NCBI RefSeq assembly: GCF_003991155.1
Contig: NZ_CP031293.1
Source: Escherichia coli
GTDB taxonomy: Bacteria; Pseudomonadota; Gammaproteobacteria; Enterobacterales; Enterobacteriaceae
DNA: 64,000 nucleotides
Direction: 5' to 3' (one strand)
Below are positions 18,891 through 22,535 of this stretch, in pieces (the first letter of the stretch is position 1; every line of letters begins with the position of its first letter). The translations under genes were made by a program, and so were the position numbers. The notes beneath the pieces are model-generated. The model saw nothing but the letters and a program-made list of their open reading frames with translations. It was not told where the DNA came from and did not search any database.

Positions 18891-18920
18891 TTGACAAACT
18901 AAATCACATCTAAATACAAT
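18891..18920 (+). promoter_or_regulatory. Candidate sigma70 promoter (TTGACA-N18-TACAAT) in the AT-rich tauA/yaiS intergenic region
   Basis: ttgaca 18891-18896, 18-bp spacer, tacaat 18915-18920; about 210 bp upstream of the yaiS start; sequence-only prediction. Confidence 0.3.
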
Positions 18921-19139: not shown

Positions 19140-19811
19140 GTGGATAAGGTTTTAGATTCAGCCCTCCTTTCTTCGGCAAATAAAAGAAAGGGTATCCTTG
19201 CTATTGGCGCACATCCTGACGATATAGAATTAGGCTGTGGCGCATCGCTTGCTCGTCTTGCGCAAAAAGGAATTTATATCGCAGCCGTGGTGATGACTAC
19301 CGGCAACTCTGGCACAGATGGAATAATCGATCGCCATGAAGAATCGCGCAACGCCCTAAAGATATTAGGGTGCCACCAAACTATTCATCTTAATTTTGCT
19401 GACACCCGCGCTCATTTACAGCTCAATGATATGATTTCCGCCCTGGAAGACATCATTAAAAATCAAATTCCGTCTGATGTAGAAATCATTCGTGTATACA
19501 CCATGCATGATGCTGACCGCCATCAGGATCATCTTGCAGTCTATCAAGCCTCAATGGTTGCCTGCCGAACTATTCCACAAATTCTCGGCTACGAAACCCC
19601 AAGTACCTGGCTTTCATTTATGCCTCAGGTTTTTGAATCCGTTAAAGAAGAATATTTCACAGTCAAACTTGCTGCATTAAAAAAACATAAAAGCCAGGAA
19701 CGACGCGATTATATGCGTCATGATCGCCTGCGTGCAGTTGCACAATTTCGCGGGCAACAGGTCAATAGCGATCTGGGTGAAGGCTTTGTAATTCATAAAA
19801 TGATTCTTTGA
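19140..19811 (+). CDS. yaiS: PIG-L/LmbE-family N-acetylglucosaminyl deacetylase-like protein
   Basis: 223 aa from GTG 19140; N-terminal ILAIGAHPDDIELGCG (PIG-L signature region); TATAAT at 19112-19117 and GGAG at 19127-19130 upstream; no signal peptide. Confidence 0.8.
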   Translation: MDKVLDSALLSSANKRKGILAIGAHPDDIELGCGASLARLAQKGIYIAAVVMTTGNSGTDGIIDRHEESRNALKILGCHQTIHLNFADTRAHLQLNDMISALEDIIKNQIPSDVEIIRVYTMHDADRHQDHLAVYQASMVACRTIPQILGYETPSTWLSFMPQVFESVKEEYFTVKLAALKKHKSQERRDYMRHDRLRAVAQFRGQQVNSDLGEGFVIHKMIL

Positions 19812-19820
19812 GCAAATTGC

Positions 19821-21017
19821 ATGAAAACCTGGATATTTATCTGTATGGCCGTAGCAATATTGCTATGGTTCCTGAGTACGTTAAGGCGTAAGCCCAGCCA
19901 AAAAAAAGGCTGTATTGACGCCATTATACCTGCGTATAACGAAGGCCCGTGTCTGGCGCAGTCACTGGATAATCTGCTGCGTAACCCTTATTTTTGCCGG
20001 GTAATTTGCGTTAACGACGGCTCCACGGACAATACCGAAGCGGTCATGGCGGAAGTCAAACGCAAATGGGGCGACCGCTTTATTGCCGTCACGCAAAAAA
20101 ATACCGGTAAAGGTGGTGCGCTGATGAATGGCCTCAATTACGCCACCTGCGACCAGGTTTTTTTAAGTGATGCCGACACCTATGTTCCGCCCGATCAAGA
20201 CGGAATGGGCTATATGCTGGCAGAAATAGAGCGCGGTGCTGATGCCGTAGGCGGCATTCCCTCTACTGCGTTGAAAGGCGCGGGTCTGTTACCGCACATC
20301 CGCGCGACCGTAAAGTTGCCGATGATTGTTATGAAGCGCACGCTACAGCAGCTCCTGGGCGGCGCACCGTTTATTATCAGCGGTGCCTGCGGGATGTTCC
20401 GTACTGATGTATTGCGTAAGTTCGGTTTCTCTGATCGTACTAAAGTCGAAGACCTTGATCTCACCTGGACATTGGTGGCAAACGGCTATCGTATTCGGCA
20501 GGCGAATCGCTGCATCGTATACCCACAGGAATGCAACAGCCCGCGTGAGGAATGGCGTCGCTGGCGGCGTTGGATTGTGGGCTACGCGGTCTGTATGCGC
20601 CTGCATAAAAGACTTTTATTTAGCCGCTTCGGTATCTTCAGTATATTTCCTATGCTGTTGGTTGTGCTTTATGGCGTTGGGATTTATCTCACTACCTGGT
20701 TTAATGAATTCATCACCACCGGGCCGCATAGTGTGGTGTTGGCAATGTTTCCGCTTATCTGGGTCGGCGTAGTTTGTGTTATTGGTGCTTTTAGCGCCTG
20801 GTTTCATCGTTGCTGGTTGTTGGTGCCTTTAGCGCCGCTTTCCGTTGTGTATGTATTATTAGCTTATGCCATCTGGATTATTTATGGACTTATTGCCTTT
20901 TTTACTGGACGCGAACCTCAGCGCGACAAACCCACCCGCTATTCCGCACTGGTGGAAGCGTCAACCGCTTATTCCCAACCTTCTGTCACAGGAACTGAAA
21001 AACTTTCTGAAGCTTAA
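19821..21017 (+). CDS. yaiP: Family-2 glycosyltransferase with N-terminal TM helix and C-terminal multi-TM region (synthase-like)
   Basis: 398 aa; N-terminal TM WIFICMAVAILLWFL, GT-A core with SDAD, EEWRRWRRW (QxxRW-like), hydrophobic C-terminal helices. Confidence 0.85.
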   Translation: MKTWIFICMAVAILLWFLSTLRRKPSQKKGCIDAIIPAYNEGPCLAQSLDNLLRNPYFCRVICVNDGSTDNTEAVMAEVKRKWGDRFIAVTQKNTGKGGALMNGLNYATCDQVFLSDADTYVPPDQDGMGYMLAEIERGADAVGGIPSTALKGAGLLPHIRATVKLPMIVMKRTLQQLLGGAPFIISGACGMFRTDVLRKFGFSDRTKVEDLDLTWTLVANGYRIRQANRCIVYPQECNSPREEWRRWRRWIVGYAVCMRLHKRLLFSRFGIFSIFPMLLVVLYGVGIYLTTWFNEFITTGPHSVVLAMFPLIWVGVVCVIGAFSAWFHRCWLLVPLAPLSVVYVLLAYAIWIIYGLIAFFTGREPQRDKPTRYSALVEASTAYSQPSVTGTEKLSEA

Positions 21018-21576
21018 TGTTAAAGAGAAAAATATTCAGATTGCAGACCAGGTAATTATTGATGAAACTGCAGGTGAAGTTGTTATCGGCGCGAATACCC
21101 GTATTTGTCACGGTGCCGTTATTCAGGGTCCGGTAGTGATTGGCGCAAACTGCCTGATAGGTAATTATGCGTTTATTCGTCCTGGCACAATAATCAGCAA
21201 TGGCGTAAAAATTGGTTTCGCCACCGAAATTAAAAATGCGGTTATTGAAGCGGAAGCAACGATTGGTCCGCAATGTTTTATTGCCGACTCGGTAGTCGCA
21301 AACCAGGCATATTTGGGCGCACAAGTACGTACCAGTAATCATCGTCTGGATGAACAGCCCGTGTCTGTTCGAACTCCAGAGGGAATTATCGCTACCGGAT
21401 GCGATAAATTAGGTTGTTATATCGGACAGCGTTCACGCCTTGGCGTACAAGTTATTATTTTGCCTGGGCGAATTATTTCCCCGAACACGCAACTTGGCCC
21501 GCGCGTGATTGTAGAACGTAATTTACCTACCGGAACTTATTCACTCCGACAAGAACTTATCCGTACAGGAGATTAA
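20866..21576 (+). CDS. yaiX: Hexapeptide-repeat (left-handed beta-helix) acyltransferase; intact; true start uncertain
   Basis: Repeats VIGANTRICHGAVIQGPVVIGANCLIGNYAFIRPGTIISNGVKIG; ATG-defined frame overlaps yaiP 3' end by about 150 nt; split by IS2 in MG1655 (from memory). Confidence 0.7.
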   Translation: MPSGLFMDLLPFLLDANLSATNPPAIPHWWKRQPLIPNLLSQELKNFLKLNVKEKNIQIADQVIIDETAGEVVIGANTRICHGAVIQGPVVIGANCLIGNYAFIRPGTIISNGVKIGFATEIKNAVIEAEATIGPQCFIADSVVANQAYLGAQVRTSNHRLDEQPVSVRTPEGIIATGCDKLGCYIGQRSRLGVQVIILPGRIISPNTQLGPRVIVERNLPTGTYSLRQELIRTGD

Positions 21577-21577
21577 A

Positions 21578-22351
21578 ATGATAAAACGGACGTTATTAGC
21601 GGCGGCCATTTTTAGCACATTGCCCGCTTATGCCGGGTTAACTTCCATTACCGCGGGCTACGATTTTACCGATTATTCTGGCGATCATGGCAATCGTAAT
21701 TTAGCGTATGCTGAACTGGTGGCGAAAGTTGAAAACGCAACGCTGCTTTTTAATCTTTCCCAGGGGCGTCGTGATTATGAAACTGAACATTTCAATGCCA
21801 CTCGCGGTCAGGGTGCGGTCTGGTATAAATGGAATAACTGGCTGACAACCCGAACGGGTATTGCCTTTGCGGATAATACGCCGGTCTTTGCCCGCCAGGA
21901 TTTTCGTCAGGATATTAACCTGGCACTGTTGCCAAAAACGCTTTTCACGACCGGTTATCGCTACACTAAATATTACGATGATGTCGAAGTCGATGCCTGG
22001 CAAGGCGGCGTATCCCTCTATACTGGCCCGGTGATCTCCAGCTACCGCTATACCCATTATGACTCCAGCGATGCAGGTGGTAGTTACAGCAATATGATTT
22101 CCGTGCGTCTGAATGACCCGCGCGGCACTGGTTATACGCAACTATGGCTAAGCCGCGGAACAGGCGCTTACACCTATGACTGGACGCCAGAAACACGCTA
22201 CGGCAGCATGAAGAGCGTCAGTTTGCAACGTATTCAACCGCTGACTGAGCAACTTAATCTCGGGCTGACGGCAGGTAAAGTGTGGTACGACACCCCAACC
22301 GATGATTATAACGGTCTGCAACTTGCAGCCCATCTGACCTGGAAATTCTAA
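21578..22351 (+). CDS. yaiO: Outer-membrane beta-barrel protein YaiO
   Basis: 257 aa; signal peptide MIKRTLLAAAIFSTLPAYA; alternating aromatic/hydrophilic pattern; C-terminal ...AAHLTWKF; starts 1 bp after yaiX stop. Confidence 0.8.
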   Translation: MIKRTLLAAAIFSTLPAYAGLTSITAGYDFTDYSGDHGNRNLAYAELVAKVENATLLFNLSQGRRDYETEHFNATRGQGAVWYKWNNWLTTRTGIAFADNTPVFARQDFRQDINLALLPKTLFTTGYRYTKYYDDVEVDAWQGGVSLYTGPVISSYRYTHYDSSDAGGSYSNMISVRLNDPRGTGYTQLWLSRGTGAYTYDWTPETRYGSMKSVSLQRIQPLTEQLNLGLTAGKVWYDTPTDDYNGLQLAAHLTWKF

Positions 22352-22460
22352 TTCCTTCTGCCGCCCGCTATCCGGGGCGGCCTTCCCTGCCGATTAGCCC
22401 CCCCTTTCCTCTTTGTTTTCCGACCACATTCACCGGATAAATTTTATTCTCCAGTGTTAT

Positions 22461-22510
22461 ATACTATAGGGGGGTATGCATTGACATATAGCATACCCCC
22501 CTATAGTATA
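22461..22510 (+). promoter_or_regulatory. frmRAB promoter embedded in FrmR operator palindrome
   Basis: Perfect 19-bp inverted repeat atactataggggggtatgc (22461-22479) / gcatacccccctatagtat (22491-22509) with G6/C6 tracts, flanking TTGACA at 22481-22486. Confidence 0.7.
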
Positions 22511-22535
22511 TTGCGTGCAGATGATGAGGTGCGAA

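Follow-up and report, generated by a model that had tools for sequence, protein, structure and literature searches.

A probable start for yaiX inside yaiP: comparative evidence on a long out-of-frame gene overlap in enterobacteria

Same-strand gene overlaps are known in several forms. Short overlaps of the ATGA or TAATG type join coupled genes of an operon, with the downstream start lying within a few nucleotides of the upstream stop. Long out-of-phase overlaps on one strand, arising through start or stop loss, have also been described, as has overprinting. Most annotated overlaps of more than 60 nt are start-codon mispredictions. Here we describe how the yaiP/yaiX junction of Escherichia coli is built, how it is conserved and how it evolved, based on a comparison of 34 related loci; species-representative genomes supplied 15 of these, exact-protein look-ups 8 and plasmids 5. 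The comparison indicates that yaiX is a functional gene that truly starts inside yaiP, and we consider it likely that it does so at the ATG at position 20884, which gives a protein of 230 aa and an overlap of 134 nt.

On the protein side, the closest described system is the acetyltransferase domain at the C-terminus of ST0452/GlmU, a bifunctional enzyme of archaeal type (PDB 5Z09, 2GGO), the best match of YaiX in both sequence and fold; for ST0452, the profile E-value is 2e-34 over chain residues 241-399, and Foldseek gave an E-value of 3e-12 at 34% identity. YaiX also matches Pfam Hexapep (5e-18) and LbH_EIF2B (2e-15), and an AF2 model of the 230-aa form (pLDDT 84) shows the regular ladder of short strands of a left-handed beta-helix. 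These matches and the model point to a stand-alone left-handed beta-helix protein, a predicted acetyltransferase of the ST0452/GlmU C-terminal-domain type. A bifunctional GlmU was considered and rejected, as YaiX has no nucleotidyltransferase domain and its match to NCBIfam Arch_glmU (TIGR03992; 9e-38) scores 130 bits against a cutoff of 292 and covers profile positions 233-393 only. Unlike ST0452 and GlmU, YaiX has as its N-terminus a short family-specific segment that begins with two tryptophans (W-W), and it lies in a putative exopolysaccharide cluster with a deacetylase, a GT2 synthase and an outer-membrane barrel, whereas GlmU serves UDP-GlcNAc synthesis. The acetyl-CoA-dependent transferase role of YaiX is putative.

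The window analysed here, a stretch of 64,000 nt, contains the tauA-yaiS-yaiP-yaiX-yaiO-frmRAB region of E. coli. The genes of the cluster are as follows.

19140..19811, + strand: yaiS, PIG-L family deacetylase, first in the cluster (223-aa ORF)
19821..21017, + strand: yaiP, family-2 glycosyltransferase, PgaC-like and membrane-bound (398 aa; in the ORF list and in PGAP)
20884..21576, + strand: yaiX in the proposed model (230 aa; +1 out-of-frame overlap of 134 nt with yaiP)
21578..22351, + strand: yaiO, outer-membrane beta-barrel, starting 1 nt past the yaiX stop

The neighbouring junctions are tight (yaiS/yaiP, 9-nt gap; yaiX/yaiO, 1-nt gap), and the order PIG-L, GT2, left-handed beta-helix (LbH), YaiO is kept across homologous loci. 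YaiP matches Pfam Glycos_transf_2 (7e-28) and NCBIfam PgaC_IcaA (8e-29), the latter below that family's cutoff. Positions 20500-21700 are 100% identical to strain 2016C-3878, and of 5426 complete E. coli genomes about 4450 have the yaiP/yaiX stretch unbroken; in K-12 laboratory strains and other K-12 derivatives, yaiX is interrupted by IS2. Repair of the K-12 yaiX' is reported to produce vegetative clumping for which YaiP is also needed (EcoGene 3.0, PMC3531124), indicating that an intact operon is functional.

Read in the +1 frame of yaiP, yaiX has an open frame that runs from 20863, just after a TAG at 20860-20862, to its stop at 21574-21576; the yaiP stop lies at 21015-21017. The initial annotation placed the start of yaiX at ATG 20866, as the only ATG of the frame, with an overlap of about 150 nt. 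The frame and the overlap of 152 nt are correct for this ATG, but it is not the only one: three canonical in-frame starts lie inside yaiP, namely ATG 20866, ATG 20884 and TTG 20893. The same annotation stated that no ATG, GTG or TTG follows between the yaiP stop and the beta-helix repeats, and this holds. The two outermost canonical candidates are given below.

20866..20868, + strand: upstream in-frame ATG, the start first proposed (236 aa, 152-nt overlap; the form in KEGG and in a 2026 paper)
21136..21138, + strand: GTG, first canonical in-frame start past the yaiP stop, inside the beta-helix and implausible as a start

GTG 21136 corresponds to residue 91 of the 236-aa ORF, in which the Pfam LbH_EIF2B match begins at residue 53 and Hexapep at residue 72. 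The canonical in-frame starts nearest the yaiP stop are thus 125-152 nt upstream of it or 119 nt downstream. A TAATG does occur at the yaiP stop (ATG 21017-21019), in the third frame, where it opens an ORF of only 12 codons. An open extension of 50 codons in an alternative frame is not remarkable by itself and could be due to chance; we judge the overlap to be real because of the comparative evidence, not because of the length of the open frame.

Databases disagree on the N-terminus of YaiX, with at least five mutually conflicting models (236, 230, 197, 193 and 174 aa). PGAP alone uses the following starts.

20995..20997, + strand: CTG, 193 aa (WP_072146072.1), used in the genome of the window, AF57 and O111:H8
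20983: CTG, 197 aa, used in UTI89 and AHB3
21052: 174 aa, used in ZH193, where the codon is GTG (GTA in the window)
equivalent of 20884: ATG, 229 aa, used in Salmonella plasmid copies

ENA-derived gene calls give 230 aa with a start equal to 20884 (cluster P0001, 1737 members), and the clusters that follow from the PGAP starts are also large (P0009, 1845 members; P0017, 1174 members). The PGAP, KEGG and Prodigal models concern the identical locus; the model proposed here has the start of P0001, and the 236-aa model is the form of PMC13058169. That 2026 functional study used the 236-aa variant and a 71-aa K-12 fragment, noted that neither is preceded by a Shine-Dalgarno sequence (SD), and found the cloned 236-aa form to be biologically active when overexpressed from a vector (PMC13058169). 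The relevant literature on yaiX, yaiP, yaiO and yaiS comprised only EcoGene 3.0, a small-protein paper (ykiC) and the 2026 overexpression paper, and the search, which for yaiX covered full text, returned no start-site or proteomic data for the four genes and neither ribosome profiling nor an N-terminal peptide from a strain in which yaiX is intact.

Distant relatives still show the ancestral junction. The 236-aa ORF as a query retrieved 526 homologues, of which most of the distant ones (about 50% identity) have a length of about 206 aa and an N-terminus that reads MWW or VWW. In two alignments (A1 and A2), this beginning falls on the H-W-W encoded at 20947-20955 of the window. All eight distant loci with a yaiP homologue (Pseudomonas viridiflava, Acinetobacter, Sphingomonas and proteobacterial MAGs) carry ATG or GTG 3 nt before the W-W codons, and in all eight the yaiP stop ends 11 nt past the first W codon, so that the overlap is exactly 14 nt. 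The distant YaiP C-terminus reads TGREPxRDKPTRYxxVVx up to the stop, and its Val-Val codons (GTGGTG) share their bases with the Trp-Trp codons (TGGTGG) of YaiX. In an Acinetobacter locus (L017), the W-W-adjacent start is the only one possible after an upstream in-frame stop.

The arrangement differs at the enterobacterial-type loci, which come from Escherichia, Citrobacter, Superficieibacter, Enterobacter, Salmonella, a Candidatus Ignatzschineria MAG and IncF plasmids. Two features of the window mark the change.

20947..20955, + strand: relic of the ancestral yaiX start, with CAC (His) in place of ATG or GTG, followed by TGG TGG (W-W)
20958..21017, + strand: enterobacteria-specific C-terminal tail of YaiP (19 codons and the stop), overprinting the N-terminus of yaiX

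The W-W codons (20950-20955) sit 68 nt inside yaiP, and the position of the ancestral yaiP stop is occupied by GCG (20958-20960), the loss of that stop accounting for the 19-codon tail, which varies in length and sequence among enterobacterial loci. Both frames are open over the junction in 19 of 19 enterobacterial-type loci. The long overlap is thus derived: the enterobacterial lineage replaced the yaiX start and lost the yaiP stop. In the proposed model, the overlap expanded from 14 to 134 nt, YaiX has gained an N-terminal extension of 22 residues and YaiP a poorly conserved tail of about 19 residues.

The conserved candidate for the replacement of the ancestral start is ATG 20884. An ATG is found 66, 63 or 69 nt before the W-W codons, at the position of 20884, in all 19 enterobacterial-type loci, which include chromosomal and plasmid copies and span 53-99% protein identity, compared with only two of the eight distant loci. 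The ATG is kept even though TAC or CAC at the Tyr/His codon of yaiP would be synonymous and would abolish it. In three loci (L009, L024, L034), it is the first codon past an upstream in-frame stop. Additional ATGs lie 6-12 nt upstream of W-W in five loci (L008, L019, L021, L023, L035), which suggests that the upstream ATG is not the sole option in every enterobacterial lineage.

The overlap may also be real with a start at ATG 20866 (236 aa, 152 nt), or with both ATGs in use, which we consider unlikely. In E. coli and E. whittamii, the open frame has ATG 20866 as its first start codon, and this ATG does not vary among the compared seq­uences (seven from E. coli, one from E. whittamii), and the 236-aa form was active on overexpression (PMC13058169). 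That construct relied on initiation signals of the vector, however, and is therefore silent on the native start, and the invariance is shared by all candidate starts: about a dozen sites vary in the overlap among these sequences and none of them affects a candidate, so that intraspecies polymorphism cannot discriminate. Beyond these species, ATG 20866 is missing from most genera. Among 16 loci scored, equivalents occur only in the window, E. whittamii (L004) and L026, with one more in the plasmid locus L031; the ATG is absent from Citrobacter L005 and L006 and from L007, L009, L021, L022, L024 and L025, and in L009 and L024 a stop codon intervenes between this position and the conserved ATG. 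The yaiP codon beneath ATG 20866 varies synonymously at a normal rate (0.55), and no purine-rich or SD-like stretch lies upstream of it. Taken together, the sequence comparisons indicate that ATG 20866 is probably not the main start.

A start at ATG 20884 is further supported by the pattern of synonymous variation, for which 11-19 sequences that are not phylogenetically independent were used, with per-window averages taken from 11 enterobacterial loci. In these 11, the last 22 yaiP codons before W-W show a synonymous difference of 0.33 compared with 0.56 +/- 0.07 gene-wide, the lowest of 17 non-overlapping yaiP windows, whereas the equivalent window of the distant clade is normal (0.58 vs 0.61 +/- 0.05). 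Most of the reduction can be followed to a short block.

20874..20909, + strand: near-invariant block, TGG ATT ATT TAT GGA CTT ATT GCC TTT TTT ACT GGA in yaiP codons

Within these 12 codons, the synonymous difference drops to 0.082 (all 12-codon windows along yaiP: 0.558 +/- 0.093), and none of 5000 column shuffles of yaiP was as low. The block holds a weak SD-like GGA (20875-20877, 6-nt spacer), ATG 20884 itself and codons 2-9 of yaiX (peptide MDLLPFLLD). As the GGA derives from an invariant yaiP Trp codon, its conservation is uninformative. The invariance of the block could reflect selection on the peptide MDLLPFLLD instead of on initiation, but both would need translation from 20884. From 20910 to 20946, synonymous variation is back to normal. 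The initial annotation had named synonymous-site constraint as a check, and such constraint is indeed found in enterobacteria but not in the distant clade, where the overlap is short.

The frame under selection switches near the old start. Variation peaks at the third codon position of yaiP before W-W and at the third codon position of yaiX after it, and from W-W to +48 the amino-acid identity is 0.54 in the yaiX frame as against 0.30 in the yaiP frame. At 20940, yaiP encodes a Tyr by TAT without exception, so that Ile or Met is retained in yaiX, indicating that a codon upstream of the old start is read as yaiX. An ungapped comparison of the yaiX-only stretch (+84..+300) was distorted by indels and was left out. 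The constraint is therefore a mosaic, with YaiP dominant over 20884-20949, apart from the initiation region and codons 1-9 of YaiX, and YaiX dominant over 20950-21017; real double constraint is confined to about 36 nt around the start. True overlap, one of the two options left by the first reading of this DNA, is thus borne out by W-W being encoded inside yaiP and by purifying selection on the yaiX frame past W-W.

The other option was a non-canonical start, which in its broader form would place initiation downstream (CTG 20995, CTG 20983, ATT 20941 or GTG 21052), leave little overlap and make the upstream frame accidental. PGAP annotates such starts and the resulting clusters are large (P0009, P0017). 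CTG 20995 is preceded by AGGA and aligns with GTG, ATG or TTG in several relatives, and it is general knowledge that long same-strand overlaps are often mispredictions. Against this, PGAP uses three different codons across strains and calls the equivalent of the upstream ATG in Salmonella plasmid copies, and any start at or beyond 20983 removes the W-W segment, which is shared across the family and, read as yaiX, is subject to purifying selection. The AGGA is separated from CTG 20995 by only 1 nt, and this codon is residue 38 of the 230-aa form, within a modelled helix (36-41, pLDDT about 88) and among residues 31-50, partly encoded in the overlap, that are modelled with the same confidence (pLDDT about 88), whereas residues 1-23 have low confidence. 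The position equivalent to 20995 codes for V, L, M or I by varied codons among loci, and that of ATT 20941 is ATA in five loci. A downstream start would also leave the synonymous collapse around 20884 unexplained. We judge the CTG 20995 start to be an annotation artefact, and by the sequence alignments CTG 20995, CTG 20983 and GTG 21052 would all truncate the conserved N-terminus. Deleting a conserved, confidently modelled segment, at codons whose equivalents are not kept as starts, makes the non-canonical option improbable; the evidence favours the 230-aa model, and models of 197 aa or less are rejected.

In principle, yaiX might have no start of its own, being either expressed as a YaiP-YaiX fusion through a +1 frameshift on GCC TTT TTT ACT (20895-20906) or an untranslated, decaying gene. 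The loss of the ancestral start, the +1 position of yaiX relative to yaiP and the lack of a strong SD speak in favour of this explanation, as does the T6 run, which is suitably placed and invariant in 10 of 11 tabulated loci. The run is missing, however, in L019, L020, L023, L034 and L035, all of which keep the ATG, and it lies downstream of the ATG, where the constraint sets in; no GT2-LbH fusion protein occurs among the 120 homologues listed of the 526. Decay is inconsistent with a gene found intact not only in some 4450 of 5426 E. coli genomes but also on plasmids and in several genera, with many invariant residues, and whose repair restores a phenotype (PMC3531124). We therefore regard both forms of this explanation as very improbable.

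How ribosomes would reach ATG 20884 is a separate matter. The initial annotation had linked a true overlap, one of its two options, to strong coupling of the two genes, of which the comparison gave no sign. For the ancestral 14-nt junction, coupling by termination and reinitiation is plausible. The E. coli start, in contrast, is 134 nt upstream of the yaiP stop, which is incompatible with this mechanism, as termination-reinitiation cannot bring ribosomes there; a start within a few nucleotides of the upstream stop is found only in the distant homologues. With the ancestral start replaced and the yaiP stop lost, YaiX would have become dependent on the upstream ATG. De novo initiation at ATG 20884 may then take place on an A/U-rich, unstructured stretch of the polycistronic mRNA, presumably while other ribosomes read yaiP, and with the weak GGA as the only SD. 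Given this weak SD, the output of YaiX is probably low. The RNA at 20850-20920 is unusually unstructured (MFE -3.9 vs -8.7 +/- 2.2 for shuffles, z +2.2), the region around 20884 being less structured than 198 of 200 shuffles. Around the yaiX start, a promoter scan found no sigma-70-like site within yaiP and hence no indication that yaiX has a transcript of its own or a leaderless one, and a scan of the whole window against Rfam at gathering thresholds found no RNA family, leaving the conserved block unexplained by a known RNA element. A stem predicted at 20913-20983 (-16 kcal/mol, z -2.5) joins the codons for KPTR to those for W-W; since these codons vary synonymously at a normal rate, it was rejected as a functional element and treated as coincidental.

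The N-terminal extension of YaiX, which is specific to Enterobacterales, might have a meaning beyond that of a side effect of the relocated start. Its invariant first nine residues, MDLLPFLL(D/E), are written over the last transmembrane helix of YaiP, and they could represent a newly evolved functional peptide, for example a tag by which YaiX would dock to the YaiP synthase or to the membrane, a suggestion we make with considerable doubt. If it is true, 20874-20909 would be a doubly constrained coding segment and a datable birth of de novo sequence by overprinting.

The correction of the start matters in practice for anyone expressing or deleting yaiX or yaiP. Current RefSeq models of E. coli drop the conserved N-terminal segment of YaiX, and an indel anywhere in the final 134 nt of yaiP affects yaiX as well. 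The substitutions T20885C and T20867C are silent in yaiP and can cleanly abolish candidate yaiX starts, each turning a Tyr codon TAT of yaiP into TAC and an ATG of yaiX into ACG.

Compared with known systems, the yaiX result is an ordinary correction of a gene-start annotation; the phenomenon is already known, and no new kind of biology is involved. The distant yaiP/yaiX pairs have a junction like the short coupled overlaps of operons, 14 nt long (ATGTGGTGGnnnTGA), whereas E. coli yaiX starts 134 nt before the yaiP stop and the TAATG there is in the wrong frame. As in the known long same-strand, out-of-phase overlaps that arose by start or stop loss, two intact frames here run over 134 nt. As a case of overprinting, the new parts, residues 10-22 of YaiX and the tail of YaiP, are poorly conserved. 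The locus is a datable example of an overlap that grew from 14 to, most likely, 134 nt by paired start and stop loss, and, unlike typical long overlaps, it comes with frame-specific selection and with a clade whose short overlap makes it a natural control.

The deacetylase gene yaiS is intact in the window, and a second, small gene lies on the opposite strand within its 3' part:

19140-19811, + strand: yaiS, intact 223-aa PIG-L deacetylase ORF
L003:1641-2198: yaiS copy of K-12, 185 aa
19677-19796, - strand: ykiC, 39-aa small protein gene, antisense to yaiS

The length of the window's yaiS product is close to the 207-221 aa of its homologues, and the K-12 copy is shortened by a nonsense change, CAG to TAG, at the position corresponding to window position 19695. 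In strain 2016C-3878, which is identical to the window over 20500-21700, PGAP tags the yaiS copy as a pseudogene "missing C-terminus", a call that, on a full-length gene, looks like an annotation artefact. The antisense gene ykiC is entered in a small-protein annotation table (PMC6001520), and its product in the window differs from that of K-12 by a single residue, S to P. Given that it lies inside the 3' part of yaiS, ykiC is therefore an antisense overlapping ORF wherever yaiS is full-length.

Promoter-like sites were found upstream of yaiS and of frmR:

18891-18920, + strand: sigma-70 promoter-like site, TTGACA, 18 nt, TACAAT
about 22455-22512: long perfect inverted repeat TATACTATAGGGGGGTATGC ... 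GCATACCCCCCTATAGTATA, directly upstream of frmR

The first, near-consensus with 11 of 12 matches, lies in the AT-rich stretch between tauA and yaiS, at a distance of about 220 nt from the yaiS start on its upstream side, and is a candidate operon promoter. The inverted repeat overlaps a promoter-like site and presumably constitutes the operator and promoter of frmRAB.

Around the yaiP/yaiX overlap, RNA folding of 20913-20983 gave -16 kcal/mol (z -2.5), better than expected, with CCACC of the yaiP KPTR codons paired with GGUGG of the yaiX W-W codons. This stem is probably coincidental, because the paired codons differ synonymously among loci. Homologues of yaiX that also start with (M/V)WW occur in candidate-phyla-radiation genomes (L014 and L015, Candidatus Kaiserbacteria/Paceibacterota MAGs). 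No yaiP-type C-terminal motif was found adjacent to them, and the ORF upstream in L015 has a PIG-L-like protein end.

The cluster also occurs beyond the chromosome. When YaiX was used as a tblastn query, 55 plasmid records gave matches, with protein identities of 53-99%; an archaeal GlmU match is included in this count. Of the 55, 38 are typed conjugative, and in all five records inspected (L031-L035) the cluster genes sit on IncF replicons. Two diverged copies (L005, L007) are present in Citrobacter braakii ATCC 51113.

19140-22351: yaiS-yaiP-yaiX-yaiO, four-gene cluster; products: deacetylase, PgaC-like GT2 synthase, acetyltransferase, outer-membrane barrel

The cluster looks like a PGA-like system for exopolysaccharide synthesis and export.
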